From: Verrucomicrobiota bacterium
GTDB taxonomy: Bacteria; Verrucomicrobiota; Verrucomicrobiia; Chthoniobacterales; UBA6821
DNA: 32,000 nucleotides
Reading direction: 5' to 3'
Assembly: GCA_008932965.1 (NCBI GenBank)
Contig: WBXG01000014.1
Coordinates: 188-32,187, forward strand
Position numbers and translations under genes: made by a program. The notes beneath the pieces are model-generated. The model ran no database searches, was not told the DNA's origin, and worked only from the letters and a program-made list of their open reading frames with translations. Below, piece by piece: positions 6,811 to 31,796 of this stretch (within the stretch, counting starts at the first letter, position 1; every line of letters starts with the position of its first letter).

Positions 6811-6984
6811 TTCCCTATTTCACTCTAATCGTGACTAGGAGGCTGATGAAGCTGTAGGGTATGGCAAGTAATGAAAGTTTAACAACTGATGTGCGGATAC
6901 ACGCTGCACGAGGAAAACTTCGAGCTCAACAAATCTTCTATCAAGCTTCCTGGTATCCTTAGGTGATCGGCATGAAATAACTCC
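6811..6984 (+). mobile_element. Degenerate near-full-length copy of the TA-flanked palindromic MITE family
   Basis: Colinear by eye with copies 17693-17835 and 20430-20606. Left end TTCCCTATTTCACTCTAATCGTGACTAGGAGG, core GATACACGCTGCACGAGGAAAACTTCGAGC, right end GATCGGCATGAAATAACTCC followed by TA (6985-6986). The left TIR carries a small deletion. Confidence 0.6.
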
Positions 6985-7215: not shown

Positions 7216-7238
7216 GTTTCTCAGTTTAAAATACTAGA

Positions 7239-7526: not shown

Positions 7527-7560
7527 GTTGAATTTTCTTAGAGCATTTTAAAAGAGTTAT

Positions 7561-7588: not shown

Positions 7589-7590
7589 TA

Positions 7591-7861
7591 ACCCGGATAT
7601 TTCAAACTGGTTCGTCGCGAGGCGCTGCGAATCCTGATGCAGACACCACCGGCGGTCGGGAGACCGCGATGGAGACTGCCCTGGCTTTAAGGGGGCAGCC
7701 CTGAAAGGGCGAGACGAGCGGGAGCGAGCGAGTCAACGCAGATGAGTATTTTGACGCAAGGCTGTTTGATTACATACTACCCAAGAAAGACTCCGAGCTT
7801 GGGCGAAGTATCCATCATGGCTTCCCAGTCTCCGAATGTAATCGGCATGAAATATACGGGC
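7591..7861 (+). mobile_element. Long (271-bp) MITE copy with an extra GC-rich core
   Basis: Left end ACCCGGATATTTCAAACTGG, right end CGGCATGAAATATACGGGC. TA on both flanks (7589-7590, 7862-7863). About 100 extra bp (7641-7740) are absent from the other copies. The right half is colinear with 17693-17835 (GAAAGACTCCGAGCTTGGGCG). Confidence 0.85.
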
Positions 7862-9336
7862 TAGGCAGACTCTTCGGGACGGTAATCCCTCGTCTCAAAG
7901 CGAGTATATTCCTTAAGAAATGTTAACGGGACCTCACCGGTCGGTCCATTACGCTGCTTGGCAATGATGAGTTCAGCTTCACCCTCTTTTTCACTACGAA
8001 GAGCATCATCTTTTTCAAAATAAGCAGAACGATAAAGCAGACCCACGAGATCAGCATCTTGCTCAATTGAGCCAGACTCACGTAGATCAGATATACGTGG
8101 TTTCCCATCACTCCTTTTTTCTGATTCACGATTCAGCTGTGCTAAAACAATCACAGGAATTGATAGCTCTTTTGCCAATGCTTTGATTCCAGCTGAAATT
8201 TCAGCTATTTCAATTTGACGATTATCTTGAGCTCTCTTGGAGTTGGATCTTAGCAACTGAAGGTAATCAATAATAATAAGGCTAAGATCGTGACGATCCT
8301 TCAATCTGCGTGCTTTTGCCCTTAGCTCCAAAATACTGAGTCCAGCAGTATCATCGATATAAATTTTACTTTTGGATAAAGCATCAGCGGCTCGAGAAAG
8401 ATTTTTCATATCTTTACTTCCCATGAACCCATCACGCACTTTTTTTAAATCTACTTTGGCACGTGAACACAGAACTCGTTGAACAAGTTGTTGTGAGCTC
8501 ATTTCCAGGCTAAAAATCCCTACTGATTTTTGAAGATCGATTGCTACATGCTCTGCAATATTCATTGCTAGGGCCGTTTTACCCATTGATGGACGAGCAG
8601 CAATCACAATCATTTCACTAGCATGCATTCCATCTGTAAGCTGATCTAGGAAAGAAAATCCAGTAGAGAGGCCAGTAAGGGCACCTTTATTTTTGTGCAT
8701 GCCTTCGATGGCATCAATCGCCAAAAGCACCTGTTCTTTAATTTCAGGAAGAGCATTACTCACTCGAGATTCACTGATCTTAAAAATATTACTTTCAATA
8801 GTATCAACTAGCGTTTTGACATCACCTTGTTCTTCGTAACATTGAGCTGCTGCACTCGTGCATACAGCAATCATACTCCGTAGAAGAAATTTCTCCTGAA
8901 CAATCTCTAGGTAATATTCAATATTGGCTGCAGTCGGAATAAATTGAATTAAATGAGCCAATGCTGCAGGACCACCTACACCATCAAGAAGTTTTTGATC
9001 GGCTAGTGCCTGGGTCACCGTAATGAGATCAATCGGTTTTAATTCCTTCCATAGACCAACTAAGACGCTGTAGATGGTGGAGTGAGCAGGTTGATGAAAA
9101 TAATTTTCATCAATTTTTTCAATACAGAGAACTAACACCTCTCGAGGTGATAGAAGAATAGAACAAAGCACCCCCATTTCCGCATCAGGACTTGATGGTA
9201 GAGCACGATAGGACTCAGGGAGGATTTTCTTAGCAACAAACTTGTTATCTCCTGCTTCTACCTTTTTTAGAACAGAGGGAGATTTTTTTCTTCCGCTAAA
9301 TGCTCCCGCATCTGTATTAGAAGAAACGGACTCCAT
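7861..9336 (-). CDS. dnaB: Replicative DNA helicase DnaB
   Basis: 491 aa. N-terminal DnaB domain (PSSPDAEMGVLCSILLSP), Walker A ARPSMGKTALAMN, Walker B LIIIDYLQLL, C-terminal motifs GSIEQDADLV and IIAKQRNGPTG. It follows rplI, the conserved rplI-dnaB arrangement. Confidence 0.95.
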   Translation of the reverse strand: MESVSSNTDAGAFSGRKKSPSVLKKVEAGDNKFVAKKILPESYRALPSSPDAEMGVLCSILLSPREVLVLCIEKIDENYFHQPAHSTIYSVLVGLWKELKPIDLITVTQALADQKLLDGVGGPAALAHLIQFIPTAANIEYYLEIVQEKFLLRSMIAVCTSAAAQCYEEQGDVKTLVDTIESNIFKISESRVSNALPEIKEQVLLAIDAIEGMHKNKGALTGLSTGFSFLDQLTDGMHASEMIVIAARPSMGKTALAMNIAEHVAIDLQKSVGIFSLEMSSQQLVQRVLCSRAKVDLKKVRDGFMGSKDMKNLSRAADALSKSKIYIDDTAGLSILELRAKARRLKDRHDLSLIIIDYLQLLRSNSKRAQDNRQIEIAEISAGIKALAKELSIPVIVLAQLNRESEKRSDGKPRISDLRESGSIEQDADLVGLLYRSAYFEKDDALRSEKEGEAELIIAKQRNGPTGEVPLTFLKEYTRFETRDYRPEESA

Positions 9337-9355
9337 AAGAGTATTTAGCTAAAAA

Positions 9356-9901: not shown

Positions 9902-9913
9902 AAATTAAAATGC

Positions 9914-9955
9914 AGAAAAAAATAATACTCGAAACAAACGCAATGCATTTTCGAG
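9914..9955 (-). terminator. Hairpin plus U-tract: candidate intrinsic terminator of the his operon, or a 5' leader structure of rplI
   Basis: The minus strand reads ACTCGAAA-ATGCATTGCGTTTG-TTTCGAGT (8-bp stem) followed by ATTATTTTTTT. It lies only ~13 nt upstream of the rplI ATG, so its role is ambiguous. Confidence 0.35.
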
Positions 9956-10035
9956 TGAGGATTCAAACTTAGCGAAGGGAAAAGCTAATCGATGAGGGGG
10001 TCGTCTGTCAATATTGCATTATGAAATAGGCGGGC
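9940..10035 (+). repeat. Left-truncated MITE remnant
   Basis: The right end ATTGCATTATGAAATAGGCGGGC is followed by TA (10036-10037). Internal GCATTTTCGAGTGAGG resembles GCATTTTGATGCAGGG of copy 16351-16528. The left boundary is approximate. Confidence 0.5.
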
Positions 10036-10041
10036 TAGTAC

Positions 10042-10824
10042 TTATTGAATTTTCTTGAGGTGTCGTTTCTTCAAACATTCTATGACATCAAAAAAATCAC
10101 TATTGCACGCTTGCAAAAGCACAAGCATGTGAAAGAGCAGATCTGCTGTTTCATTAATGAGCTCGTGAGGTTTTTTACCTACGGCCGCAATAACGGTTTC
10201 TACTGCTTCTTCTCCCACTTTTTGAGCACAACGCTCTCTCCCCTCATTCAACAATTGAGTTGTATACCGAATCGGATCCGCCCCAGCCGTAGCACGCTCG
10301 GCAATGGTGGTGATTAAGGTTTTTATAAATCCAAGATCCGTAGAGACCGGAGGCTGAAAGCAACTGGAATATCCCAAATGACAGGCGGGTCCTTTTGGCA
10401 AGACGAGCACAAGCAAAACATCATGATCACAATCCGTTCGAATAGATTGCACCTCCATACTATTGCCTGAGGTATCACCTTTGCGCCAAAGGGATTGTTT
10501 GCTACGACTCAAGAAGGTGACTTTTCGTGTGCTTACAGTTTGAACATACGCTTCTTGATTCATGTATCCTAACATTAAGACATCTCCTGTTTGTGCATGC
10601 TGAACAATTGCTGGAAGCAATCCTTTCATTTTTTCCCAATCTAATAGACTACTTTCACATTCTAGTGCAGCTGTGGTGAACTCAGAGGAACCAGCATGTC
10701 TCTCTTCGAGCACCTCTTGTTCACTATGGGAATAAGCTTCTAAATTTCCCTCTTTTATATCAGCGGTAGCAACGTTGAAACTAGGTTCTCGTTGATCGAC
10801 TATTGGCTTAGATATAATTTTCAT
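10042..10824 (-). CDS. hisI: Bifunctional phosphoribosyl-AMP cyclohydrolase / phosphoribosyl-ATP pyrophosphatase (HisIE) with a ~55-aa N-terminal extension
   Basis: LDWEKMKGLLPAIVQHAQTGDVLMLGYMNQEAY ... KVTFLSRSKQSLWRKGDTSGN ... DCDHDVLLVL ... GPACH ... CAQKVGEEAVETVIAA ... ETADLLFHMLVLL is colinear with E. coli HisI as I recall it. Last gene of the operon. Confidence 0.93.
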   Translation of the reverse strand: MKIISKPIVDQREPSFNVATADIKEGNLEAYSHSEQEVLEERHAGSSEFTTAALECESSLLDWEKMKGLLPAIVQHAQTGDVLMLGYMNQEAYVQTVSTRKVTFLSRSKQSLWRKGDTSGNSMEVQSIRTDCDHDVLLVLVLPKGPACHLGYSSCFQPPVSTDLGFIKTLITTIAERATAGADPIRYTTQLLNEGRERCAQKVGEEAVETVIAAVGKKPHELINETADLLFHMLVLLQACNSDFFDVIECLKKRHLKKIQ

Positions 10825-10830
10825 ATTTTT

Positions 10831-11601: not shown

Positions 11602-12341
11602 TATCTTCTTGATTGCTTTTCACTCTCAATAGCAGCTTTCAAATTGAAATGAGGATCATAGAGGACACGACCCAAAATGGCAGCGGCAACACCAACACGG
11701 GATAATTTTTTGAGATCCTCACGATCCCGTACACCTGCAGATGCCTGCCACTGTATGGTTGGAAAGCGACTTAACGCCTCCTCATACAAGGCTATATTAG
11801 GGCCTGAGAGCATCCCATCCCGAGTAACATCAGTGCATAGAATAGTATCAATACCCCAATCTTGATAAAAAGAAACACGCTCCCACAAGGAATGTTTTGT
11901 TGCTGTTTGCCACCCATGAATGACTATGTTAGGGAGTGTCTCTTCTATCCTCACATCTAAAGCCAAGATGACGCGCTGGGGCTTGGCTTCTTGAATAATT
12001 GTTATTGTTTCTTTGGGGTTACTAATGGCAATACTTCCAAGAACGATCCTCTCAATACCAGCATCAAGACAAGCTAAAGCGGTTTTAAAGTCACGGATAC
12101 CTCCACCAACTTGAAGAGAGAGGCCCTCTGCTGTTAATCCTTTGATAAGCTCTAGCTGCTGCATGCTACCTTTCTTAGCTCCATCTAAATCGACAAGATG
12201 AAGATGGGTTGCACCAGCCTGTGTATAGTTCGCAGCAAGAGTCATAGGATCCTTTTCATAAATAGAAACACGGTCAAACTGACCTTGTTCTAATCGAACA
12301 CAGCGGCCATTCTGAAGATCAATTGCGGGAATAATAATCAT
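11601..12341 (-). CDS. hisA: 1-(5-phosphoribosyl)-5-[(5-phosphoribosylamino)methylideneamino]imidazole-4-carboxamide isomerase
   Basis: [20 protein letters not shown] ... LHLVDLDGA ... LQVGGGIR ... [16 protein letters not shown]. 246 aa. The stop overlaps the hisF start (TAATG). Confidence 0.93.
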
Positions 12342-12934
12342 GAGCGTGTTAACCTTAAAAAATTATTCAATAAGGTCATTCCCACCAGTGCTGATTTTTC
12401 AGGGTGAAATTGCACTCCGTAAATATGATCTTTTTGGACAACAGCAGTGAATTCTGTGCTGAAGTGACAGCGAGCAATGGTATTTTCGTGGGATAAAATT
12501 GCATAACTATGCACAAAATAGAAGTGGTCATCATCCTTCAATCCTTGACTTAAAGGAGATTCCTCAAGCCACGTCATATTATTCCATCCCATGTGAGGAA
12601 TGGAGAACCCTGGTACTGAAGGCAAGCGTTTAACCTGTCCTGAGAGCAAGCCTAGCCCTTTTTCATTCCCTTCTTCACTACTTTCAAAGAGGAGTTGCAT
12701 TCCCACACAGATGCCTAATAAAGGTTGTCTTAGTCCACCAATAAGATCGATGAGATGATGTTTTTGTAAAGCTTGCATAGCAGCACCTACGGTTCCAACA
12801 CCTGGTAAAATTACATGACTGGCTCGCTCAATAGTTTTAGGATCATGGGTTAGGCAGGATTCAAATCCCAAGCGGTCTATCGCATTGGCAATAGAAGTGA
12901 GATTGTTCCCCGTAATATCAATAACAGCGATCAT
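12338..12934 (-). CDS. hisH: Imidazole glycerol phosphate synthase, glutamine amidotransferase subunit
   Basis: Class-I GATase: [12 protein letters not shown], nucleophile elbow [24 protein letters not shown]. 198 aa, with 4-nt overlaps to both hisB and hisA. Confidence 0.93.
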
Positions 12935-13989
12935 AAAACCCCTTTCGTAGAGGGAAGTACTGTTCCCTGTACCATAGTAGCTTGACGCAGGGCACGCCCT
13001 AACGCTTTAAAACAAGCCTCAATCATATGATGATTATTTGTTCCTTTTACTTGCACATGAATGGTGGCTCCTAAACTTGTTGCCAACGAATGAAAAAAAT
13101 GGGGAATCATTTCCGTTGCGAGCCCCCCTACAAAATCACGTGTAAAATGCCCCTCAAAATGAGAGGAGCCGCGCCCTCCAATATCGATAGTCACGGTTGC
13201 CAATGCCTCATCCATGGGTAGGGTGAATCCGTAACGTTGAATACCAACTTTGTTACCTAAAGCCTTTTTTAAAGCCTCTCCCAGTGTGATAGCGGTATCC
13301 TCGATAAGATGATGTTCGTCAACCTCAACATCACCCTGTGCCTGTAGTTCCAGATAAAATCCAGCATGCTTGGCGATCTGTTCGAGCATATGAGTAAAAA
13401 ATCCAACAGGAGTCTTAATACTACTTGGTTTTTCTGAATCTAAAAAAAGCGTTATGGTGATCTCGGTTTCATTGGTTTTACGCTTGATCGAAGCAGAACG
13501 ATTGAGATGAAGAATAACTGAAGCAACTTCCTTCCAATCTTGAGTGCTTGAAATGAGCAAGAATGGAATGTTCAGATTTTGAGCTAAAAGCCGATCTGTT
13601 TCACGATCACCGATTACAAAAGAATGAGCATGATCTAATGGGTTATTTTTTAAAAATGTTTCTAGCAAGCCCACTTTTGGTTTACGGCAAGGACAATTTT
13701 CTTTTGGCAAGTGAGGACAAATAAAAATCTCCTTAAAGATAATCCCCTGCGATGCAAAAAGAGCTAAGAGAAAATCATGGCATTCTTGAAAGGCAGATTG
13801 AGGAAAACTAGAGGTCCCTAAACCATCTTGATTACTTACCATAATAAGCTCAAATCCCCCTTCTAATAAGGATCTCAGAGCTGGAATAACATAAGGAGAA
13901 AGTCGGATTTTAGAAAGAGCATCGACCTGATAGTCGCTGGGTTCTTCAATCAATGTCCCATCACGATCAATAAAAAGTATTTTTTTCAT
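12931..13989 (-). CDS. hisB: Bifunctional histidinol-phosphatase / imidazoleglycerol-phosphate dehydratase (fused HisB)
   Basis: The N-terminal HAD phosphatase has FIDRDGTLI and CxC zinc motifs ([14 protein letters not shown]). The C-terminal IGPD has two HH motifs ([23 protein letters not shown]). 352 aa, as in enterobacterial HisB. Confidence 0.93.
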
Positions 13990-14000
13990 GCAGTAGATTT

Positions 14001-15227
14001 TTAAAAATCAGGTTGAAACGAACGAAGAGCTAAAAGCAGAGCCTCATTTTGAAGGCGATCACCTACTGTGATTCTCAACTTATCGTCCAGGAGCGGATTC
14101 CCGTTATAATGACGCACTAGAATGTTGTTCTTCTCCAACCAGCTACTCACGCTGTGCGCCTGTTTTGTTTTGAGAAAAATAAAATTAGCCTCACTGGGGT
14201 AAACTTTTTCGACCCAGGAAAAAGTTCTTAAAGAAACCTGTAGTTCTTCACGAAACATCACAATATTTTCAACTGCTGTTTTAATCCAAGATGCATTTTT
14301 TAAAACGCGAAGGGCCCTTTCTATAACGAGACTAGAAAATGTAAAAGGAGGAGTAATACTCCTGAGGGCTTGTATTAAAGGAGCAGGACCTATCACACTG
14401 CCCAGTCGCAAGCCTGCTAAACCATAAGCCTTGGAGAGTGTTCTTAATACAAGCAGATTATCAAATGAGTTGATGAGTGATGTTGCACTTACCGTCTCAG
14501 TAGAGTTTGAATATCGGTTCTGAGCAAATTCCACATAAGCTTCATCCACAACAATGATAGCGCGCCTCTCATATTTTTGACACAAACTAGCAATCGTTTC
14601 TAAATCGATAAGATTACCCGTAGGATTATTGGGACTACAAAGCATGATGAGCTTACAATGCGGTTGCCAGAGCTGATCTAGGAGCTCGAGGTCTAGACTG
14701 AAATCCGTATCTTTGAGAGGACAGCAAATAACATTTGCCTGCTGCATCCGTGCATAAAAAGCGTACATCAAGAAAGCCGGAGGAAATTGCATGATACTAT
14801 CGATGCCCGGTTGCAAAAAAAGACGCATGATAAAATCGATTCCCTCATCAGCACCTCGTGTCAGCAGGAGATTTTCAGGGTTTACGTAATAGATCTCGGC
14901 AAGCGCCTGTTCTAATTGTGACTGAGGTTCTAAGTCAGGGTAGCAGTTTAAAAACCTATTCTCACAGTCTACTGACGTAGCGAAGGGCTTTGTTGCTTCA
15001 GTGCTCGCTCCATCGAGTACATTAAGCGTATTCTGTCGCTGTGCGCTCGATATTCCTTGCCCTTGATCAGCCACAGTAACCTTGAAAACAGGTTCTAGAA
15101 AAACAGAAAACTCCTCGGTGGGTATCCATGGTGATTCATTAAGGTGCAAACGAGTTTTCCCATGAGTAGGGGTAGTAATGTAGGTTGTCATGCCCACTAA
15201 CTCAGGCCGTACTAAGTCAATACTCAT
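14001..15227 (-). CDS. hisC: Histidinol-phosphate aminotransferase, carrying a ~46-aa extra N-terminal segment
   Basis: [57 protein letters not shown] (PLP lysine), LRITVG. 408 aa against about 356 for E. coli HisC (recalled). Confidence 0.88.
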
Positions 15228-16705
15228 TATATTTTCTCCATGACTTGCAAGCGTTGCGAAATTGCATTGGCGTGTGCATCGAGACCTTCGAGCATAGCAA
15301 GGGTGCAGGCTGATTTCCCTAACGTCCTTAATCCTTCCTCAGAGATAGATTGAACACACATCGATTTCATAAAATCCCCAGTTGATAAGCCGCTACGCTG
15401 ACGTGCAAATCCATATGTGGGTAGGATATGATTGCTGCCGGTAACGTAATCACCCAATGTTTCTGCAGCCCATGAGCCTAAGAAAATAGTTCCTGCAGCA
15501 GTAATGTGATCTACCCAACTTGCAGCATCCACACATTGAATCATGAGATGCTCTGGTCCATAACGATTCACAATTTCAATCATTACGGATCGATCTTGGC
15601 AAATGAGGATAGCGCTATGTTGTAACGATTTTTTGATGAATTCTTGTCTCGTGAGATGTTGATATTGGTCGACTAAGGCCTGATGAACCGCTTCTGCAAA
15701 GAGAGGGTCTTCGCACAGTAGAAAAACTTGAGAATCGGCCCCATGCTCCGCCTGAGCTAGTAGATCAGCAGCCACAAAAAGAGGATTTGCTGAGGCATCT
15801 GCTAGGATCATCACTTCGGAGGGACCTGCAGGCATGTCGATAGCTGCACCCTCAGGATCACTAGAAACCTGAACCTTTGCTTCGGTAACATAGGCATTAC
15901 CGGGACCAAAAATCTTATCTACTTTTGGGATGCTTTTTGTTCCATAAGCCATGGCAGCAATTGCTTGAGCCCCTCCAATTTTATAAACTTGTTTGATATC
16001 ACACAAACGAGCAACTACTAGGAGTACTGGATCAATTACTCCTTCTGCATTAGGTGGTGTGCACATGACACGCATAGGACACCCTGCAACCTTTGCTGGG
16101 AGTGCCTGCATGAGCAACGAAGAGACTAAAGGAGTCTTATTACCACCCGGAACATAGAAGCCTACTCGGCTAATAGGTCGATAAATCCGCTCTAGAAGGA
16201 CTCCTGGAGCAGTTGAAATATGCTTATTCTCAGGCAGTGTTTCTTGATGGAAGTGGGTGATGTTTTTCACTGCTGTCATCACGGCTTCCATGGCCTGCGG
16301 AGAAATAGTAGCTGCAGCAATCTCCTTGGGAGAGACTTGCAGGCTCGCTAGCCCGGATATTTCATACTGATCGTGACGAGGAGGCCGCGGAGGCTGATGG
16401 GGTAAGGCAGGCGAGCATTTTGATGCAGGGCTGTATGTGTCCCTACTGCTCAAATCAAAATGTGAGTCTAACGCAGCATCCATCTGACTTCCCGGCTTCC
16501 GTAGTAGATCAGTATGAAATATGCGGGCTAGGTCGATACCATCGAGCTCACGTGTCCATCGTAAGAGAGCTACGTCTCCCTCTTGTTGGACCGAGTGAAT
16601 AATCTCAGTGACACGTTTTTTAGCATCATGGTGCTGGGGAGGCCTTACTAAAAGCTCTTCTCTTCTGGAAGCAGAGAGGATCTGCCAGTTTTCAATACGC
16701 AACAT
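15227..16705 (-). CDS. hisD: Histidinol dehydrogenase, interrupted in-frame by a 60-codon MITE insertion
   Basis: FYVPGGNKTPLVSSLLM, IGGAQAIAAMAYGT, VDKIFGPGNAYVTEAK, IDMPAGPSEV, LLAQAEHG, GPEHL, GDYVTGSNHILPT. 492 aa, or 432 without the insert at 16351-16530. The stop overlaps the hisC start. Confidence 0.9.
   Translation of the reverse strand: MLRIENWQILSASRREELLVRPPQHHDAKKRVTEIIHSVQQEGDVALLRWTRELDGIDLARIFHTDLLRKPGSQMDAALDSHFDLSSRDTYSPASKCSPALPHQPPRPPRHDQYEISGLASLQVSPKEIAAATISPQAMEAVMTAVKNITHFHQETLPENKHISTAPGVLLERIYRPISRVGFYVPGGNKTPLVSSLLMQALPAKVAGCPMRVMCTPPNAEGVIDPVLLVVARLCDIKQVYKIGGAQAIAAMAYGTKSIPKVDKIFGPGNAYVTEAKVQVSSDPEGAAIDMPAGPSEVMILADASANPLFVAADLLAQAEHGADSQVFLLCEDPLFAEAVHQALVDQYQHLTRQEFIKKSLQHSAILICQDRSVMIEIVNRYGPEHLMIQCVDAASWVDHITAAGTIFLGSWAAETLGDYVTGSNHILPTYGFARQRSGLSTGDFMKSMCVQSISEEGLRTLGKSACTLAMLEGLDAHANAISQRLQVMEKI
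16351..16528 (+). mobile_element. 178-bp MITE copy inside the hisD coding sequence (best-preserved copy)
   Basis: The TIRs GCCCGGATATTTCATACTGATC and GATCAGTATGAAATATGCGGGC match 21/22 as inverted repeats. TA on both flanks (16349-16350, 16529-16530). Confidence 0.9.
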
Positions 16706-16732
16706 CTCGTGAAAGGTAAAAATTAGACTTCA

Positions 16733-17614
16733 TCACTCTAATATTTTTTCAATGGGCAAAATTAAAATAGAACTAGCCCCTAAGGATTGAATCGTTTCTA
16801 ACGTTTTCCAAAAAACTCCTTCTGTAGAGACGACGTGAACTACCACTTTATCAGGATCTCCTGGAAGTGGAAGAACGGTTGGTGATTCAACACCAGGGAG
16901 CTGTTCGCAAATTTCCTTCAAGGCGCTTTTAGGAGCGTGAAAGGCAATATATTTACGCTTTGCAGCATGCTGCACAGCACTAATACGACGTGCCAGCATG
17001 TCGAATAAATCGTGTTGTTCAGGTGTGATAGCATGCTCTCCTCGAATCAGGCTTGCTTGACTCTCCAAAACTGTTTCCACAGGAATGAGTTTATTTTCTT
17101 CTAGGGTTTGACCACTAGAAACCAAATCGCAGATAGCATCTGCCATCCCCATACGTGGAGCCACCTCCACAGAGCCTGAAAGAATCAGCGTTGGAGCAGA
17201 AACATGTTGTTTTTTTAAATACTCCGTTAAAAGCAGAGGATAACTTGTGGCAATGCGTTTTCCTTCTAAGCTGCTTGGACCCTTATAATTCATCCCTTCT
17301 GGTACAGCAATCACCAAGCGACAATGAGCATTATCTAGCGTTAAAATACTTTGATATTTTTTATCAGGAAAGCGGAGTGATGCCTCCAGCAACACGTTAG
17401 TGCCAATAATCCCCCCATCACACAAACCATCAAAAACTAACGTAGGAATGTCATCATCACGCACAAAGAGAAGATCAATTGGGAAATTATTCACATGCGT
17501 TAGCAAGGCACTTTCTTTGACATGAAACTGAAGTCCACAACGCTCTAGAAGAGCTATTGAATCTTGAGCAAGGCGTCCTTTTTTTTGAAGAGCCAAGCGA
17601 AGTCGAGAGGGCAT
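16733..17614 (-). CDS. hisG: ATP phosphoribosyltransferase, long form
   Basis: 293 aa. LRLALQKKGRL, DLLFVRDDDIPTLV, catalytic region RIATSYPLLL ... DAICDLVSSGQTLEEN, plus the C-terminal regulatory domain typical of long-form (HisZ-independent) HisG. First gene of the operon. Confidence 0.9.
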   Translation of the reverse strand: MPSRLRLALQKKGRLAQDSIALLERCGLQFHVKESALLTHVNNFPIDLLFVRDDDIPTLVFDGLCDGGIIGTNVLLEASLRFPDKKYQSILTLDNAHCRLVIAVPEGMNYKGPSSLEGKRIATSYPLLLTEYLKKQHVSAPTLILSGSVEVAPRMGMADAICDLVSSGQTLEENKLIPVETVLESQASLIRGEHAITPEQHDLFDMLARRISAVQHAAKRKYIAFHAPKSALKEICEQLPGVESPTVLPLPGDPDKVVVHVVSTEGVFWKTLETIQSLGASSILILPIEKILE

Positions 17615-17692
17615 AAAATAGAAATTAGAATTTTTACTAGCGATAGAAGAGTTGATTCTTAAAGGAGAGTGATAGCTTGAGTCAATAGACTA

Positions 17693-17835
17693 ACCATACT
17701 ATTTCATACTGATTGTGACGAGTAGGTCGCGAAGGCTGTATGAGTCCCTACTTCCCGAGGAAGACTTCGAGCTTGGGCGCAACATCCACCCTTGCTTCCC
17801 GGCTTCTGCAGGTAATTGGTATGAAATATGCGAGC
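17693..17835 (+). mobile_element. 143-bp MITE copy between the uvrA stop and the hisG start
   Basis: The left end ACCATACTATTTCATACTGATTGTGACGAG has 4 mismatches in the outer TIR. The right end is GGTATGAAATATGCGAGC. TA on both flanks (17691-17692, 17836-17837). Confidence 0.85.
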
Positions 17836-20403: not shown

Positions 20404-20429
20404 AACATCACAAATCCTTACCTAAACTA

Positions 20430-20606
20430 ACCCGGATATTTCATGCTAATGGTGACGAGGAGGCCGCGAAGGTTGATAGAGGAGGGCACGCGATCAAGTC
20501 TGACGAGATAGGCGTTTGTACACACTGCCCAAGGAAGACTTCGAATCCAACGCTCTATTCATAGAGCTTTGCACATGCCTTTATAAATTGAGTGTGAAAT
20601 ATCCGG
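20430..20606 (+). mobile_element. 177-bp intergenic MITE copy between tRNA-Ser and uvrA
   Basis: ACCCGGATATTTCATGCTAATGGTGACGAGGAGGCCGCGAAGG ... GGAAGACTTCGAATCC ... GTGTGAAATATCCGG. TA at 20428-20429 and 20607-20608. The right TIR is one base shorter than the left. Confidence 0.85.
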
Positions 20607-20642
20607 TATAGCGGAGCAGTCGCATTCATGAGTAACAAAAAC

Positions 20643-20729
20643 TGGTGAGGGAGGGATTCGAACCCTCGGTACCTTTTACAGTACGGCGCTTTAGCAAAGC
20701 GCTGCTTTCGACCACTCAGCCACCTCACC
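20643..20729 (-). tRNA. tRNA-Ser (anticodon GCU), class II with a long variable arm
   Basis: The reverse complement is GGTGAGGTGGCTGAGTGGTCGAAAGCAGCGCTTTGCTAAAGCGCCGTACTGTAAAAGGTACCGAGGGTTCGAATCCCTCCCTCACCA. It has a 7-bp acceptor stem GGTGAGG/CCTCACC, anticodon stem GCGCT/AGCGC with loop TTGCTAA, a T-arm GAGGG-TTCGAAT-CCCTC and a long extra arm. CCA is not encoded. Confidence 0.9.
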
Positions 20730-20860: not shown

Positions 20861-21910
20861 ATGATGACTTCAATGCCTCCTGTTAAGACAACTGCGAAAC
20901 AACTCCTTATTACCGGATCTACCGGCTTTGTAGGACGCAATTTGCTGATTCACGCTCTGAAGGATCCGAGCTGGTCTCAAATCATTCTTCCTGTCAGAAA
21001 TCCAAAGAAACTTCTTGAACAACTCCACCAGGATCATCTCCATGGGTATTTAGATCGCTTGCACCTCTGCACCGTGAGCAACAATACATGGAACTTAGAA
21101 GGGATCGAGGATCTTGACCTAGCGATTCACTGTGCTGGACTCACCTTCTCTCGTGACCGAGATCCTTATTTTGCAACACATGTAGAGGGCTCTCTCCATC
21201 TGCTAGAATCACTCCCAAAGCACTCGCGTCTCCTTGTACTCTCCTCCCAATCAGCAGCTGGACCGAGCTCTAAGATTATCCCAATACGTAGAGAAAACCA
21301 TCTTGAAAAACCCCTCACCTGGTATGGAAAATCGAAATTAGCAATGGAAAAAAATCTCTCGCTGCTCGCCTATGAACGGCTTCTTATCCTGCGTCCTCCT
21401 ATGATTCTTGGCCCCCGTGATACGGCGACAGTTCCCCTTTTTAACATGGCTAAGGGACGAGTACGTTTTAAACCTGGTTTTAAAAAAAAGGAATATAGTT
21501 GGATTGCGGTCGATGACTTATGTGATGCAATACTTCTTGCTGCAAGGAACGATTGGAGCTCCCTTCCCCAGCGTTGTTATTTTTTAGCACATCCAAAAAC
21601 ATTGACTGATGTCGCATTGCTTAAGACAACAGCTGAAATAATTCATGCAAGTGGTATTACTCTTCCTTTACCTCATGCTCTGATCCAATGCATTTCAAGA
21701 GTAGCTGATCTGGTACCAACGCTGAGAGAAGCCCTTCCTAGCTTGGGTCGTGATCGGGTTAAAGAAATATTTGAACAGCGTTGGGTGATTGATGGAAAAC
21801 CTTTCGAACGCGATTTTCAGTGGAAAGCTCAAAAAGATCTTCGTGAGACTTTACAAGAAACAGCTGTTTGGTTAGAGAGAAACAGAAGTTCGAAGAGTAA
21901 ATCGCAATAG
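20861..21910 (+). CDS. NAD(P)-dependent epimerase/dehydratase-family (extended SDR) protein
   Basis: Rossmann motif ITGSTGFVGRNLL, catalytic YGKSK (YxxxK), 349 aa. Substrate unknown. The last ~8 codons may derive from the adjacent repeat remnant. Confidence 0.8.
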   Translation: MMTSMPPVKTTAKQLLITGSTGFVGRNLLIHALKDPSWSQIILPVRNPKKLLEQLHQDHLHGYLDRLHLCTVSNNTWNLEGIEDLDLAIHCAGLTFSRDRDPYFATHVEGSLHLLESLPKHSRLLVLSSQSAAGPSSKIIPIRRENHLEKPLTWYGKSKLAMEKNLSLLAYERLLILRPPMILGPRDTATVPLFNMAKGRVRFKPGFKKKEYSWIAVDDLCDAILLAARNDWSSLPQRCYFLAHPKTLTDVALLKTTAEIIHASGITLPLPHALIQCISRVADLVPTLREALPSLGRDRVKEIFEQRWVIDGKPFERDFQWKAQKDLRETLQETAVWLERNRSSKSKSQ

Positions 21911-21975
21911 GATTCTAACACAGCATCCATCTGAATTCCCGGCTTCCGTAGGTGATCGTGATGAAATATGCGGGT
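21911..21975 (+). repeat. Right-half MITE remnant between two convergent genes
   Basis: GATTCTAACACAGCATCCATCTGAATTCCCGGCTTCCGTAGGTGATCGTGATGAAATATGCGGGT is nearly identical to the right half of copy 16351-16528. Followed by TA (21976-21977). Weaker similarity may extend left to about 21884. Confidence 0.8.
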
Positions 21976-24206
21976 TAAGGAAACGCTGGAACCGTGTAGG
22001 GAATATCACCTGCATAGGGATAAAGATTGATGACATAAAGTCCACTTGAAGAGCCGGTAGGGTCGCCCCCTTTTTCTTTTGCGTTAAGCACTCGTTGATA
22101 AGCTTCGCAAGCAATTCTTGTGACTCTTGCTTGCATTTCTGGATGATCTTCATAGTGACGCATGACGCAATAGATAGCTTTTAATTCAGCCAGTCGTTCT
22201 TGGACGTAAGGTTCTATGGGATCACTAGAAGGACTTGAATTTTTGAGTTTTTGATAATGATTTTTTATATCACTGAGTACATTTTGATAACTCAGCTCTT
22301 GGGTGGTTACTCTGGGGCCAGGCTTATAGAGCAATTGACCATCTGATTGTGATTGGCTTTCCAATTTATTTGCATAGGTGATTTCGGCACGGCTTTTAGA
22401 GTTTAAGTAGCGAGCACTTAAATAAACAGTAAATTGTCTAGGCATCGAAGCAGAAGTAACGACTCGATTTACTATTTTAAAAGTACGACTTTCAAAACCG
22501 ACCCCTGAAGTGATTTCCTCGTTGAGTTGGTCTTCATTCTCTACGCTATCTTGGGCTTGATGCGCTATTTCAGGAAGATTGTCGGCGCTTGTCATTCCCA
22601 ATAAATGTCGGGTGTCATCGACTAAATGAACCACATCATGAGTTAAATCATTACCTGTTCCATGTAACGCAGCCTCTGAAGCATAATAACCAGATAAAAG
22701 AAATAATTCATGGCTGAGTGCTTCTGAATAGGGAATCCCAGTCGCAGCAACGGCATGATCGATCACACCACCCACAAGAGTATTCTGAATACTTTCACCT
22801 AGCATGGCACCAACAGTTGTATGATATGCAATATTAGCACCAGCATTGGCACCCGTGAGAGCATTCACATCACTCTGGGGGCTCAAGGCCTCATCAACCT
22901 TAGCATCCCAATAAGTTGTTACATAACCAACACCCCAACCAGCAGCCACCCCTGCAATGATACCAATCCCGAGAGCTCCAACCGGAAGTAATGCCGTGCC
23001 AAGGGCTCCTGTTGCCAGTGGTGCTCCCAAGTGTGCTACAGCAGTAGTAACTGCAGGGCCAACTGAGTAGCCTTTTAAAAGCATTCCTATTTTGATGAGA
23101 TCTCCAGGGGTTTTTAGTAACTCTTTTCCAGTTTCAGTCAGTTTCTTTAAACAGCGTTGTTCCTCAAGTGATAGTTTTTCAAATTTTTCCTCTGCCTCAC
23201 ATCTTACACGATTTTCTCTGTGTTCGCTCAGTATACCCGATTGCAAAGGAATGAGTTCAGCCACGCGATCCAAACCTGCGTAACAGTCATCGATCATCGC
23301 TTTTGCTTGACGATAGCCTAGAGGAGAGTTCGGCTCGTGTTGAAGAAAGGGTTGAGGGAGTTGATCTCCAAATTGAGCTTGAATGGCTTGAGAAAATCTT
23401 TTCCAGATCGCTCGTGACTGATCTTCCGTTGGTGGTTCTTGTTGAAAAAGTATTTTATTCTCTTCATCTGTTAGCAAAAAACCATCCTCCTCTTGGCATA
23501 AAATATCAGTAAAAGGCTTCAGTAAATGGTGAGCATTCTCTCTAGCGCTCTGAGCAAGAACATAAGTCCCCTCCAGCATCTCCTCTCTGGCTTGGGGATC
23601 TAGATTTTTAATATCTTCAAACGCATCACTCAGTGAATGAGCTACCTCATTAAAAGCTGGAGGTTCCTGATTTGAGGAGTGGCTAGAAATCTGCCCAACT
23701 TGCTCTGCCTCTCTTGTTTTGATTTCTTGAAAAGCTTGGTAAGCCTCTAAGGCAACTCTAGAAATCTCATTTTTGACTTTTTCTAAGTTCTCCGCTGAAG
23801 AGTTGTTAGGAATCCCTACCTTGATTCTAATAGCTTCCTCGTGAAATTTTTTAAGATTGTTGTTAGGTGAACGATCACTTCTGGAATTTTTTTGAAGCTC
23901 CTTATCCATGATTTGTATTGCTTTGATTTTGGTTATAGCAAGGCTCCTAATTGCCTCACGATCATCATTCTCTTGTTCACCATTGTGATGATTGTAATAG
24001 GAGCGATTGGTATATCCAAACCAACTACCCAAAAAGGAGAGACGACTCCTTTCCGTTTCTTTCACTTTTCCTGAGGAATTATTGGGCGATACTTGCTTCA
24101 ATGATCCAGAAGAACTGACAGTGGCATTATCATTAGATTTAGAGGTAAAGGGATAAAAACTAGGTAAACTAGAAATAATCCGCGAAAATAAATTTTGTGC
24201 GCTCAT
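21975..24206 (-). CDS. Hypothetical 743-aa protein with a central glycine-zipper / bilobed hydrophobic segment
   Basis: A long uninterrupted ORF with no signal peptide and a hydrophilic Ser/Asn-rich N-terminus. Residues ~372-433 read GMLLKGYSVGPAVTTAVAHLGAPLATGALGTALLPVGALGIGIIAGVAAGWGVGYVTTYW. I recognise no family motif. Confidence 0.6.
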   Translation of the reverse strand: MSAQNLFSRIISSLPSFYPFTSKSNDNATVSSSGSLKQVSPNNSSGKVKETERSRLSFLGSWFGYTNRSYYNHHNGEQENDDREAIRSLAITKIKAIQIMDKELQKNSRSDRSPNNNLKKFHEEAIRIKVGIPNNSSAENLEKVKNEISRVALEAYQAFQEIKTREAEQVGQISSHSSNQEPPAFNEVAHSLSDAFEDIKNLDPQAREEMLEGTYVLAQSARENAHHLLKPFTDILCQEEDGFLLTDEENKILFQQEPPTEDQSRAIWKRFSQAIQAQFGDQLPQPFLQHEPNSPLGYRQAKAMIDDCYAGLDRVAELIPLQSGILSEHRENRVRCEAEEKFEKLSLEEQRCLKKLTETGKELLKTPGDLIKIGMLLKGYSVGPAVTTAVAHLGAPLATGALGTALLPVGALGIGIIAGVAAGWGVGYVTTYWDAKVDEALSPQSDVNALTGANAGANIAYHTTVGAMLGESIQNTLVGGVIDHAVAATGIPYSEALSHELFLLSGYYASEAALHGTGNDLTHDVVHLVDDTRHLLGMTSADNLPEIAHQAQDSVENEDQLNEEITSGVGFESRTFKIVNRVVTSASMPRQFTVYLSARYLNSKSRAEITYANKLESQSQSDGQLLYKPGPRVTTQELSYQNVLSDIKNHYQKLKNSSPSSDPIEPYVQERLAELKAIYCVMRHYEDHPEMQARVTRIACEAYQRVLNAKEKGGDPTGSSSGLYVINLYPYAGDIPYTVPAFP

Positions 24207-24465
24207 GATAAATCAGTAGAAAAGAAATTACTCGGTAGTATTACTATGGACCCAATATCCGATAGATTCTTAAGATAGTAAGAGGAAATAAAAGAAGGTA
24301 GGATGCCCTCATTTCTAGAATGCGTTACAGCTATCTTGGTAATACAGATCAAGGACCTTGTTAAAATTGGTCAAAACTGATTTTTTATTCAAATATTTTT
24401 TACCCTCACTTTCCGTAACGAAATCTAGCACGCTCTTCTTGAGCAGTTGTGTTGATACAATCACC

Positions 24466-26838
24466 ATGCATTACCTTATTATTATTTTTCTTTTTCACTT
24501 AGGAGTTTTAGTAGCTCAAGAAACAACAATTTCTACTTCTTCCAAAGCAGTTGAACCTCTCAACCAAACTTCAACACGAGCCGAACTCTCCTCAAAGCTT
24601 CTATTAGAGCAAAAGCAATCCTCCCTTTCTGCCAAGTCTACCACTACAGGACCAGGAACTGACCTTGCTAACCAAGCTTCGTTAGAGAAATTACCCCACG
24701 TCTCGGCAGCAATTTTACGAACAAAACTCCAGCAGGAGAAGGATCCCTCACAACGCCATCAAATAGCGTTACGTCTTGCAGAGATTCTACTCCAGGAACA
24801 ACGTCCCGCTGAGGCTCTCTCAATCCTAGAGTCGAAGGATATTGACTCACCTCAAGAGGGAGAGCAGGACACGATGGTTCTATTCTGGAAAGCTCAAGCC
24901 CTACTTGCATTGCAGCGGCCTGCAGAGGCTATTGCATTACTTGAAAAACTAGTTTTGATATTTCATTCCAATCTCACTCCAGAACTTTCCACTCAACAAA
25001 CTCAAGATTATCTCGAAGCCTCTCAAATGAGCTTAGTTCGTGCCTACCGTGCACAAAGTGACTTTGCAAAAGCCATATCAGTGCTCGATACTATTACTCC
25101 CAATGGCCCCATGGCGGCTCTAGTCTTGCAAGAACGAATAGCAACTTTACTAGCCCTTCAAAAAAACAGTGATGTTGAACAACTCTTTAAAACCATCTCA
25201 CCACAGACACTTTCAAAGCAACCACGCCTGGCCTATCTTTTTGCGCTATGTGCAGCACAACAAGGGGACAATACTGAAGCTCTGAAGCGATTTTCAAAAG
25301 TGGAGGCTGTTGATCCTTGGACCTCCTCCGCTGCTATTTCAGGAATCGTTCATTGTGATATTTCCCTTAATAAACCTGCGGAAGCACAATTAATTTTAGA
25401 AAAATATTTGCAAGAGAATCCAGAATCTCCACGGGTAGCAGAATTGATGACTCAGTTAGAGCAGCTCTATATTCTTCAAAATAACAATGACATAACCCTT
25501 TTTCAAAAGTGGTCCCAAGATACAACACAACCCTGGCGTGCCTCCTATGCGCTACTTCCCTACGCACGAACCATGGAACGTCTTGGACATCGAGATAAAG
25601 CCGATGAATTGTGCACCATTTTTTTAACCACCTATCCTCATCATGCCCTTAACAATGAGGCTTTATTAGAACTGGCTCAGAGCAAACTCTTGCAAGGAGA
25701 TCCTCAAGGAGCCCTCTCCTATATTGGTGATAGACCTGATATGGCTTCTTCAATGCGGGCCCGCTACGCTTTTCAAAGGGGTTTAGCAGAATCAGCATTG
25801 AAACATCCTGAACAAGCCAAAAAAGCGTTTATTGAAGCGGCTTCTTTTGATCCCCATCTCTCAGAGGATGCCTTGTACAATCAATCGCTTCTTCAAATTA
25901 CCCCTGACATTGAGAATTCCATGACACCACTCAAAAATGCACACGACCAAAATGCTCATGAAAATGAGGAGTATCTAGCTGTTCTTTCCACAGATCAAGG
26001 AACTCGTCAAAGTGCAATTTCAGTGATTAAAGCATCTCGTCATTTTCTAGAAACCTACCCTCAATCCCCCTTCTCCAATGAAGTGAGGATGAAACTGGGG
26101 GAAGCCTTGCTGGCCTTTGGCAATGTTAGGGAAGCACGCTTAGAACTAGAAACAGTAGGAAAATTAGAGCCTTCTTCTGAACTAGGAAGGCAAGCACTTT
26201 TCCTAGCTGCCCAAGCAGCGTCACGCAGCATGGATCCTAAGTCCATTGATGATGCTTTGATGCTTTTAGAACAAATCGCTCAAAGCCCTCATGCAGGAGC
26301 TGATGTTTGGCAAGCAAGATTAGATCAAGCTGCGTTAAAAAATGCTCAAGCATTGCCACTAGAAGCAATTGCTATTTACGATCAGATTTTGGCTTCACAG
26401 GAACCCTCTCCTCAATTACGTAATACCGCACACATGGCAAAAGGAGACACGCTCTATGGACTGGGCACCAAAGATCGTGCTAATTATCAAGCGGCCATCA
26501 ACGTCTGGCGCCAGCTAGCCGATGAACCCAACATCGCTCCCTACTGGCGCAATCAAGCGCTCTGTAAAATAGGATTAACTGATGAAAAATTAGGCGATGT
26601 CGACTCTGCTCTTACAGCTTATTATGAAGCACTGAAGACTCCATTAAACCAAGAAACAGAGCTGCTCTGGCATGATAAATCAGCTTTTGAAGCAGCACGC
26701 TTGTTAGAGTCAAGAAAGCAATGGAGTGAAGCAATTCGACTTTATCAACAAATTGTTTCTGAAGGGGGCCCTCGTGCTTATGAGGCGCAGGAAAAAGTGA
26801 GCAAGCTTCGTTTAGAGAATTTTCTCTGGGAAAAATAG
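24466..26838 (+). CDS. Secreted TPR-repeat protein
   Basis: ATG 24466 gives the signal-like N-terminus MHYLIIIFLFHLGVLVAQETT. The tracked start at 24358 is a TTG with no signal peptide. The body has many helical repeats with TPR-like A/L/Y spacing (AEALSILE, AEAIALLEKL, FAKAISVLD, GDNTEALKRFSKV, WSEAIRLYQQIV). Confidence 0.75.
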   Translation: MHYLIIIFLFHLGVLVAQETTISTSSKAVEPLNQTSTRAELSSKLLLEQKQSSLSAKSTTTGPGTDLANQASLEKLPHVSAAILRTKLQQEKDPSQRHQIALRLAEILLQEQRPAEALSILESKDIDSPQEGEQDTMVLFWKAQALLALQRPAEAIALLEKLVLIFHSNLTPELSTQQTQDYLEASQMSLVRAYRAQSDFAKAISVLDTITPNGPMAALVLQERIATLLALQKNSDVEQLFKTISPQTLSKQPRLAYLFALCAAQQGDNTEALKRFSKVEAVDPWTSSAAISGIVHCDISLNKPAEAQLILEKYLQENPESPRVAELMTQLEQLYILQNNNDITLFQKWSQDTTQPWRASYALLPYARTMERLGHRDKADELCTIFLTTYPHHALNNEALLELAQSKLLQGDPQGALSYIGDRPDMASSMRARYAFQRGLAESALKHPEQAKKAFIEAASFDPHLSEDALYNQSLLQITPDIENSMTPLKNAHDQNAHENEEYLAVLSTDQGTRQSAISVIKASRHFLETYPQSPFSNEVRMKLGEALLAFGNVREARLELETVGKLEPSSELGRQALFLAAQAASRSMDPKSIDDALMLLEQIAQSPHAGADVWQARLDQAALKNAQALPLEAIAIYDQILASQEPSPQLRNTAHMAKGDTLYGLGTKDRANYQAAINVWRQLADEPNIAPYWRNQALCKIGLTDEKLGDVDSALTAYYEALKTPLNQETELLWHDKSAFEAARLLESRKQWSEAIRLYQQIVSEGGPRAYEAQEKVSKLRLENFLWEK

Positions 26839-26861
26839 ATTCCATAGCTCCTCATCATTAC

Positions 26862-26899
26862 GATCAGTATGAAACATCCAGGTTGACCCGGATATTTCT
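26862..26899 (+). repeat. Right-end TIR directly abutting a left-end TIR (tail-to-head MITE ends, no core)
   Basis: GATCAGTATGAAACATCCAGGT - TG - ACCCGGATATTTCT. The first part matches the right TIR and the second the left TIR. Confidence 0.65.
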
Positions 26900-28021: not shown

Positions 28022-28100
28022 AGGCTGCCACAGCTACCATCTTTACACCTGCTTTCCGCTTGCTCCTCTTGACTCTAGCCTATAGCCTCCAGGCTTCTTT

Positions 28101-31752: not shown

Positions 31753-31796
31753 CTGACCGGCCCCTCACGACCAATCAGTATCAAATATCCGGGGGC
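31753..31796 (+). repeat. Solo right-end MITE remnant
   Basis: CTGACCGGCCCCTCACGACCAATCAGTATCAAATATCCGGGGGC aligns with CTTCCCGGCTTCCGTAGTAGATCAGTATGAAATATGCGGGC. Followed by TA (31797-31798). Confidence 0.6.

Follow-up and report, generated by a model that had tools for sequence, protein, structure and literature searches.

A palindromic miniature transposable element of Verrucomicrobia, flanked by a 4-bp YTAR duplication and found in frame within hisD and other genes

Introduction

The closest described systems to the repeat reported here are the Rickettsia palindromic elements, RPE-1 to RPE-10 (Ogata et al., 2000, 2002; summarised in PMC10969869). These are palindromes of approximately 100–180 bp without a transposase, scattered intergenically and often fused in frame into unrelated housekeeping genes, in which the conserved peptide sits where it can be tolerated, and several families occur per genome. 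Here, we describe a palindromic element family that is like the RPEs in these respects, including a second family in the same DNA, from a 32,000-nt stretch of a Verrucomicrobiota genome (GenBank assembly GCA_008932965.1, contig WBXG01000014.1, positions 188 to 32,187), referred to as the window. One near-full-length copy lies between the genes for tRNA-Ser and UvrA, and the best-preserved copy lies inside the histidinol dehydrogenase gene, hisD. An earlier note on the window, made from the letters alone, had described the family as TA-flanked MITEs (miniature transposable elements that end in inverted repeats) of IS630/Tc1-mariner origin.

Small high-copy hairpin MITEs with TA at the insertion site, situated near or inside genes, are also known as the Correia elements of Neisseria and Nezha of cyanobacteria. 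Occasional in-frame fusions of a MITE-borne open reading frame (ORF) with a host gene have been reported for intragenic ERIC, BOX, QMITE1, and Anabaena MITEs (PMC10969869). The REP/REPIN–RAYT systems comprise palindromes of 20–40 bp that have a GTAG or CGTC head, make no target duplication, and are accompanied by a RAYT gene (PMC3733652). With regard to target sites, IS5 duplicates 5'-YTAR-3' (Y, C or T; R, A or G) (PMC5009759), and piggyBac, of which IS1380 is a prokaryotic relative, has a TTAA target and CCC termini (PMC10813416).

Element Structure and Target Site Duplication

GTDB, with one genome per species, was scanned with the terminal motif of the element, and the returned loci were subjected to a strand-resolved profile search. 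Statistics on flanks and lengths were obtained from 71 full-length copies with readable flanks in these GTDB loci, and 42 copies from metagenome loci served as a replicate set. The modal core among the 71 copies is exactly 176 bp long, CCCGG…CCGGG, with lengths ranging from 141 to 269 bp. It starts with CCCGGATATTTCATACTGATC and ends with GATC(A/G)GTATGAAATAT(C/G)CGGG, and the terminus bounding the element reads CCCGGATATTTCATAC…. The consensus ends and terminal inverted repeats (TIRs) given by the earlier note match this family consensus, and the 25-nt terminal arms of the hisD copy are 96% complementary. The core has no coding capacity for a transposase; its sole open frame encodes a 60-aa peptide without a Pfam match.

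The single-copy query 16351-16528 also matched its own reverse strand (nhmmer), indicating that the element is palindromic throughout. Folding confirmed the predicted long hairpin, as the hisD copy folds into one with z = -8.3 for DNA and -7.3 for RNA, and hairpins with z < -3 were obtained for 33 of 34 copies. A terminal stem of approximately 18 bp is conserved in all 34. This stem and a small apical hairpin make up the pairs conserved across the family, with a small number of compensatory pairs between the subfamilies. The consensuses of the two subfamilies share 72% identity, and mosaics that combine a left arm of A type with a right arm of B type exist.

TA was present on both flanks in 54 of the 71 copies, as the earlier note had proposed, but the element proved to be shorter by one base at each end. 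The base preceding the left TA was C or T in 53 of these 54 copies, the base following the right TA was A or G in all 54, and the A or G that had been taken as the left terminal base equalled the base after the right TA in 47. The flanks are thus YTAR 4-mers, found on the left in 60 and on the right in 61 of 71 copies compared with 1.2% of background positions. Left and right 4-mers were identical in 39 of 71 copies, where permutation gave 19.2 ± 3.1 and none of 20,000 permutations reached 39 (P < 5e-5). The identical pairs consisted of TTAA (26 copies), CTAG (8), and the non-palindromic TTAG (5). In the metagenome replicate, YTAR was found in 39 of 42 copies on the left and 39 of 42 on the right, with identical pairs in 25 of 42; TTAA/TTAA was the commonest pair overall (26 copies in GTDB loci and 16 in metagenome loci). 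Because the flanking 4-mers repeat beyond chance, including the non-palindromic pair TTAG/TTAG, the target duplication is a 4-bp YTAR, mostly TTAA, around a 176-bp core, and not the 2-bp TA duplication proposed before.

In-Frame Insertion in hisD

The features at this site are as follows.

15227..16705, minus strand: hisD, 492 aa instead of approximately 432, with the frame intact through the copy at 16352-16527
16352..16527, plus strand: best-preserved copy, 176-bp core, inside hisD (nhmmer, 176.8 bits)
16348-16351 and 16528-16531: CTAG, the flanks of this copy

The earlier note had listed this copy as associated with hisD; it lies within the frame of the gene as 60 codons and not beside it, which had been overlooked. 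The copy is read in frame on the minus strand and encodes ARIFHTDLLRKPGSQMDAALDSHFDLSSRDTYSPASKCSPALPHQPPRPPRHDQYEISGL. Since 180 bp are added and exactly one frame per orientation is free of stops, the hisD copy is a clean 60-residue in-frame insertion. In agreement with this, the Pfam domain Histidinol_dh was found at residues 111–486 of the window HisD (profile positions 37–411), and in comparison with Escherichia coli HisD (PDB 1K75), residues 5–56 align to 7–60 and residues 117–489 to 61–430, so that the split falls between residues 60 and 61. A HisD of 492 aa was found only in the same species; the nearest relatives have 433–441 aa and are 84–88% identical outside the insert. The orthologue alignment contains a clean gap of 60 residues between ELDGID-L and ASLQVSPKE, and the N-terminal 59 residues, 88% conserved with orthologues, are still in frame.

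In an AlphaFold2 model of HisD, the predicted local distance difference test (pLDDT) score was approximately 90–97 on either side of the insert. Insert residues 64–119 scored 25–29 with no secondary structure, and on this basis the insert is probably an extruded, disordered loop. The 492-aa HisD is presumably produced as an active enzyme.

The best HisD matches beyond close Verrucomicrobia were almost all from Legionella or Tatlockia (50–66% identity, approximately 100 listed hits), a distribution that may reflect horizontal exchange of his genes (window 10042-17614) between these lineages.

Reading Frame and Outcomes of Insertion Within Genes

Each insertion adds 176 + 4 = 180 bp, or 60 codons. 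In the frame [YTA][RCC][CGG][ATA][TTT][CAT]…, neither orientation of the element contains a stop codon, and the other frames carry stops. The encoded peptide starts with (A/T)RIFHTD and ends with QYEI(S/C)GL, with a middle that differs by orientation. Among 34 copies with the exact 176-bp core, or 178 bp when one flanking base per side is included, this frame was open in 22 in the forward and in 25 in the reverse orientation, and the other frames in none. Both subfamily consensuses contain no stop in this frame in either orientation and 2–7 stops in each of the other frames; against a palindrome-preserving shuffle, the stop-free frame had P = 0.016 and 0.023 for the two consensuses. The length variants of 182 and 188 bp that occur within ORFs likewise lengthen them by a multiple of three.

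A copy was considered embedded when the open frame extended at least 150 nt on both sides. By this definition, 10 of 71 full copies in the GTDB loci and 8 of 42 in the metagenome loci were embedded (approximately 14–19%), all in one phase and in both orientations. Pfam homology flanked the insert on both sides in PheT (tRNA_bind, insert, B3_4), GlnD, PyrF, and a low-molecular-weight (LMW) phosphatase whose domain is split, and homology on both sides was also found in aldose 1-epimerase, AroD, and a phosphopantetheinyl transferase. Other hosts, named by reading their translations and not by Pfam, are presumably an SBP_bac_5-type binding protein, LptF/G-like permeases, RNase HII (rnhB), a HAD hydrolase, and an RHS-type protein. 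When the 60-residue window peptide was searched exhaustively against 1.84 billion representative proteins, 120 clusters were retrieved, approximately 19 of which were proteins of 200–1248 aa, the others being short gene-caller ORFs inside copies. A word-indexed search with the peptide returned 33 candidates, all of them short ORFs.

Two of the hosts depart from a single insertion in a single gene. A GlnD-like protein of the Kiruna bin (L041) carries two in-frame copies, one N-terminal and one ahead of the ACT domains. In another host protein (P0223), a Vut_1 gene and an FtsX-type gene are seemingly joined into a single ORF via a copy, which suggests that the element may also create gene fusions.

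These properties would give an insertion within a gene one of three outcomes. With YTA read as a codon, the gene would gain 60 in-frame residues, which may often be tolerated as a disordered surface loop. With TAR as the stop codon of the gene, the duplication would restore the stop and leave the gene unharmed. In the third phase, a TGA stop would follow after 7 codons and the gene would be lost, which would account for no such copies having been seen. In the window, the hisD copy corresponds to the first outcome, and the copies beside dnaB and a 743-aa ORF (TAA at 21975-21977) correspond to the second. Via the duplication, 13 of 71 copies adjoin the stop codon of a frame that is 100 codons or longer, compared with 3.1% of all YTAR sites.

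The length in multiples of three, the frame that is stop-free in both orientations in diverged subfamilies, and the target that falls on a codon boundary or a stop would be compatible with selection for translation compatibility having shaped this family and the second one described below, a proposal that we put forward tentatively and consider rather doubtful. The PheT insert differed at 3 of 176 positions between two strains with an average gene difference of 6.8%; an element-specific constraint was rejected here, because the flanking 400 bp were equally conserved.

Evidence for Mobility and Search for a Transposase

Removal in silico of a copy and one duplication (176 + 4 bp) gave gap-free junction alignments at four orthologous empty sites.

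hisD: window versus Deming_bin.170
TamB-like gene: Tobar versus Kiruna
LMW phosphatase gene: Kiruna versus Tobar
one intergenic site

At the hisD site, the orthologue reads …ATA AGC TTA ACG AGG… and the window …GAC CTAG[176 bp]CTAG CG AGC…. Some copies are nested in other copies, and their excision likewise gives a gap-free alignment to uninterrupted paralogues with a single TTAG. These empty orthologous sites and nested insertions show that the element has moved. In the Kiruna and Tobar bins, copies are near the consensus, with pairwise identities of up to 96%. With its size, TIRs, target duplication, empty sites, and dispersed copies, the element is a miniature non-autonomous transposon, and the earlier description of a small, non-coding, multi-copy MITE with TIRs and a target duplication is borne out.

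Several searches were made for the enzyme that moves it. The pieces between distant pairs of termini at five loci (L038, L086, L166, L165, and L117) were examined as candidate transposase-bearing elements and rejected, since they contained only ordinary genes (lolE, gyrA, porin, and pheT). All-against-all blastn revealed no within-genome repeats of 350 bp or more, the long matches being orthologues of 66–82% identity. No recurring protein was found beside the ends among 51 solo ends, and no IS630-family gene bounded by the element termini was seen in the sampled motif-selected loci.

A 4-bp YTAR duplication argues against an IS630/mariner enzyme and for an IS5-like or IS1380/piggyBac-like transposase. 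IS5-group ends begin with GG or GA (e.g., GGAAGGTGCG in IS5), and IS1380-family elements have CC ends and duplications of 4–5 bp. The CCCGG ends found here are unlike those of the IS5 group, and no IS5-type transposase with these termini was found in the sampled loci. The 4-bp YTAR duplication itself is shared with the IS5 group (PMC5009759). With piggyBac and IS1380, the family shares TTAA as the dominant 4-bp duplication and 5'-CCC…GGG-3' termini (PMC10813416); it differs in that CTAG and TTAG targets are also common, piggyBac is eukaryotic, and no such transposase was found in the sampled loci. We infer that the enzyme would be either of the IS5 group, which fits the 4-bp YTAR, or of the IS1380/piggyBac type, which fits TTAA together with CCC…GGG. 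A cut-and-paste DDE transposase acting in trans would recognise termini of approximately 22 bp and insert the element at YTAR, mostly TTAA, with duplication of the 4 bp.

Copies in the Window

Window copies were called by a family profile search and by the single-copy query 16351-16528, both with nhmmer. Repeat detection in the window gave a left-end family of 70 nt, a right-end family of 52 nt, and a terminal family of 21 nt with seven members. The single-copy query matched 20431-20606 (E = 1e-15), 17700-17834 (4e-13), 21899-21974 (2e-12), 7719-7861 (5e-12), and 6816-6979 (1e-11), all on the plus strand, and the family profile gave E values of 1e-14 to 1e-54 for the same five. This recovered the near-full copies listed earlier and confirms the repeat family as real. 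In the window, the terminal motif of 20 nt, CCCGNATATTTCATRCYRAT, had 11 matches at three or fewer mismatches compared with 0.06 expected from shuffles. By the family profile, there are six solid copies (6816-6979, 7592-7860, 16352-16527, 17700-17832, 20431-20606, and 21899-21974) and two significant terminal fragments. In addition to the hisD copy, the following features were found.

20431..20606, plus strand: palindromic-element copy, near full length, profile positions 1–175 (nhmmer E = 8e-35)
20427-20430: left flank CTAA of this copy; its right terminus is degenerate (…CCGG, then TATA)
20643-20729, minus strand, and 20403, minus strand: the tRNA-Ser gene and the uvrA start codon, between which this copy lies
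7592..7860, plus strand: long-form copy of 269 bp with an extra GC-rich internal segment, flanks TTAA and CTAG
7861-7864: right flank CTAG of the long-form copy, which holds the dnaB stop (TAG, minus strand, 7861-7863; dnaB ORF 7861..9336, minus strand)
17694..17834, plus strand: internally deleted copy of 141 bp, flanks CTAA and CTAG, between hisG and the uvrA end (nhmmer E = 2e-26)
6812..6984, plus strand: degenerate near-full copy between an FGE-sulfatase-like gene and tatA (nhmmer E = 6e-26)
21899..21974, plus strand: right-half copy between two convergent genes (nhmmer E = 2e-14)
21975-21978: right flank TTAA of the right-half copy, which holds the TAA stop of the ORF 21975..24206 (minus strand)
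26850..26882, minus strand: reversed left-end fragment, profile positions 1–33 (E = 0.0015, compared with 0.14 as a plus-strand right end)
31756..31793, minus strand: reversed left-end fragment downstream of purU, profile positions 1–38 (E = 8e-5, compared with 0.066 on the plus strand)

A simple scan of 20431-20606 found no promoter-like or terminator-like consensus site inside the copy. At the right-half copy, the final four codons and the stop of the ORF 20861..21910 are element-derived sequence. The two fragments had been given as 26862-26899 and 31753-31796; they are significant as terminal fragments but are better read as minus-strand left ends (12.2 bits versus 5.8 bits for the other reading at 26850-26882, and 16.4 versus 6.8 bits at 31756-31793). 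A 12-nt plus-strand left-end stub at 26887-26898 adjoins the former. A single orientation had been claimed for all copies, and it holds for the six larger ones in the window; both terminal fragments are reversed, however, and in other genomes both orientations are present even on single contigs. Matches at 7561-7587, 10014-10034, and 24957-24982 were marginal by the family profile. The first two represent fragments placed at 7561-7588 and 9940-10035 by the earlier note (E = 1–2), only 10014-10034 of the latter being matched, and no support was obtained even at E ≤ 50 for its fragment 7191-7215 or its weak candidates at approximately 24210-24290 and 28030-28075.

The long-form copy belongs to a subfamily of 200–270 bp that was also observed at L026 (5246-5503), L017, L022, and L045. 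Its extra segment is GC-rich, internally palindromic (…CCACCGGCGG…CCGCGGTGGAGACTGCC…GGCAGCCCTGAAAGGGCGAGACGAGCGGGAGCGAGCG…), and conserved between genomes, and it could be a remnant of a larger progenitor.

Host Range and Copy Number

The similarity is not confined to the window. At least 171 copies or fragments were found in the GTDB loci, all in Verrucomicrobia bins among the matches listed, with the following counts.

Kiruna_bin-02438: 75
Tobar2m-G38: 62
Deming_bin.170: 21
window: 7
SMAG_U8253: 5
GL74: 1

Scanning of metagenomes contributed a further 168 copies or fragments, located in 62 of 100 loci, bringing the sum to at least 339. Their sources are Chthoniobacterales ("Spartobacteria") bins and freshwater metagenomes, with no other taxon among the matches listed, and the carriers are Verrucomicrobia of fresh water and soil that have not been cultured. 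Hits of the terminal motif in Burkholderiales, Halomonas, Clostridia, and other taxa lacked family similarity and were rejected as chance matches. Nothing similar to the family was found in plasmid and phage collections, the sole match in an Rfam scan of the window was tRNA-Ser, and no description of the family was found in the searchable literature. Window 6733-17772 is matched at 100% identity by a JGI metagenome contig (3300027969, Ga0209191_1001609), and an ENA/NCBI contig is 98.6% identical to the window over 18 kb. Public protein records (P0121–P0144, with P0133 as KAB2643772.1, and P0270 as KAB2644367.1) annotate intergenic copies as "hypothetical proteins" of 57–104 aa and include a hisD call of 418 aa, discussed below.

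A Second Palindromic Family and Other Repeats

A second palindromic family, unrelated to the first, is represented in the window by two copies.

14949..15104, minus strand: second-family copy in frame inside hisC (14001..15227)
10644..10789, minus strand: diverged second-family copy at the 5' end of the hisIE ORF (10042..10824; nhmmer E = 1.5e-4)

This family is approximately 150 bp long; its termini are (T)AGAACCTGTTTTCAAAG…CTGTGAGAACAGGTT, its hairpin has a folding energy of -50 kcal/mol, and approximately 35 matches recur in the same Verrucomicrobia loci. By protein alignment, the insert adds approximately 49 residues to HisC, which has 408 aa compared with 351 aa in the Deming orthologue. 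The hisIE ORF has 260 aa compared with 217 aa in the orthologue, and the diverged copy falls within its N-terminal 60 codons; this copy may be translated N-terminally or may merely extend the ORF upstream of the true start.

Another repeat, a 31-nt inverted repeat at 23315-23345 and 24569-24599, has 94% complementary arms lying 1223 nt apart and is too long for chance. The 743-aa ORF (minus strand) holds one of the arms and a TPR protein gene (plus strand) holds the second; by eye, the arms are read in different frames, one gene giving …LQHEPNSPLG… and the other gene …STRAELSSKL….

Discussion

Taken as a whole, the results are very probably explained by a palindromic element that is mobilised in trans, duplicates YTAR on insertion, and has three possible outcomes within genes. 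The IS630/Tc1-mariner reading would have a 178-bp element with TA duplicated and YTAR merely as a target preference. IS630 prefers CTAG and duplicates TA only, TA is present on both flanks in 54 of 71 copies, and palindromic TTAA and CTAG flanks fit either model. Such an enzyme, however, predicts that the bases inside and outside TA are independent, yet in 47 of 54 copies the inner base on the left is the same as the outer base on the right, and whole 4-mers match about twice as often as expected (39 of 71 versus 19). The ten cases of TTAG/TTAG would need non-complementary G…T element ends, and the nested insertion aligns gap-free to the single-TTAG paralogues only on removal of 4 bp. With no IS630-type gene seen in the sampled loci either, this origin is very unlikely. 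A further alternative is that the repeats are functional structured units (REP/REPIN-like sequences, terminators, or small RNAs), perhaps spread by a single-strand IS200/IS605 or RAYT-type mechanism. The very stable hairpins, some compensatory pairs between subfamilies, a weak orientation bias (55:28 relative to GC skew, p = 0.004; 18:7 relative to co-directional genes), and the enrichment after stop codons are in its favour. Direct duplications and 22-bp TIRs are nevertheless foreign to REP/RAYT and IS200/IS605, there is no T-run terminator signature and no Rfam match, copies occur within coding sequence in either orientation, mosaics have mismatched arms, and per-locus counts reduce the orientation bias (30:17, p = 0.08); we therefore consider it extremely improbable.

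Two other explanations concern the translated insert. The 60-residue segment might be a selected protein module, for instance an interaction peptide or a linker, spreading from gene to gene with the palindrome as a secondary trait. This would accord with an open frame in both orientations of two diverged subfamilies, with embedded lengths in multiples of three, and with the 120 representative protein clusters that contain the peptide. Most copies are intergenic, however, the two orientations give unrelated middles, and the hosts are functionally unrelated; the peptide has no Pfam match and is predicted to be unstructured, most of the "proteins" bearing it are gene-caller ORFs of 50–140 aa inside copies, and the low divergence of the PheT insert is common to 400 bp of flanking gene. 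A protein module thus has hardly any probability in our view. It might also be that the hisD insertion inactivates the gene as a recent pseudogene, or that the insert is removed in the manner of an intron or intein, and that no 492-aa enzyme exists. An mRNA hairpin of -75 kcal/mol would impede translation and might be targeted by RNase III, and one public gene call begins downstream of the insertion point. On the other hand, the frame and the whole his operon are intact, the N-terminal 59 residues are 88% conserved, the allele is common to strains 1.4% apart, the same situation is found in essential genes such as pheT, and the insert has no hallmarks of inteins or group I/II introns and no Rfam hit. 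A loss or removal of this kind would be very unlikely.

For an element mobilised in trans that inserts at YTAR and is translated in hisD, the following observations weigh against our account. No transposase with matching termini was found in approximately 1.2 Mb of motif-selected pieces of fragmented bins or in plasmid and phage collections, and the copy densities are biased upward because the sampled loci were chosen for carrying the terminal motif. Over the 18 kb compared, the window and the 98.6%-identical strain showed no difference in the presence or absence of copies, and there is thus no sign of recent activity here; since the window copies are also mutually diverged or truncated, these insertions are old. 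Among non-palindromic identical flanks, read in the orientation of the element, TTAG occurred 10 times and CTAA never, and copies were weakly biased in orientation against the local GC skew, at 55:28 per copy. A symmetric cut-and-paste mechanism predicts neither, and from this asymmetry and anti-correlation the two ends of the near-symmetric element seem not to be equivalent. The bias relative to co-directional genes did not extend to embedded copies (8:10). Concerning HisD, the public call (418 aa) starts at a Met inside the insert and drops the conserved N-terminal 59 residues.

Compared with described systems, the family is a new one with a known kind of behaviour and not a new type of system. 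The RPE host is an obligate intracellular alphaproteobacterium and the present hosts are free-living Verrucomicrobiota, which carry an element with clear TIRs, a 4-bp YTAR duplication, and a frame that is stop-free in both orientations; the embedded fraction of 14–19% of full copies is below the roughly one half of some RPE families. The element is best regarded as RPE-like in behaviour and not as an RPE member, being set apart by host and structure. Correia and Nezha differ in their 2-bp TA duplication and IS630-type transposases. The fusions of ERIC, BOX, QMITE1, and Anabaena MITEs are sporadic, whereas the multiple-of-three length and bidirectional frame found here make in-frame survival systematic. 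In contrast to REP/REPIN–RAYT, the unit is 176 bp long, duplicates 4 bp, and has no GTAG or CGTC head.

The family also matters for annotation, as intergenic copies are miscalled as "hypothetical proteins" of 50–140 aa, host genes are sometimes mis-started at the insert Met, and copies break metagenome assemblies; masking the family would improve the annotation of this lineage. In-frame palindromic insertions in essential genes have hitherto been treated largely as a curiosity of Rickettsia, and the present family is an independent and abundant example. Its defined TIRs, 4-bp target, and many pairs of occupied and empty genes make mobilisation, selected coding compatibility, and loop tolerance testable, including the question of how HisD, PheT, and PyrF accommodate 60 residues. 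If translation compatibility has indeed been selected, a selfish element could colonise the coding sequence of gene-dense free-living bacteria, and these Verrucomicrobia would offer another, independent RPE-like system that lends itself better to experiments and that supplies essential enzymes with new disordered loops.

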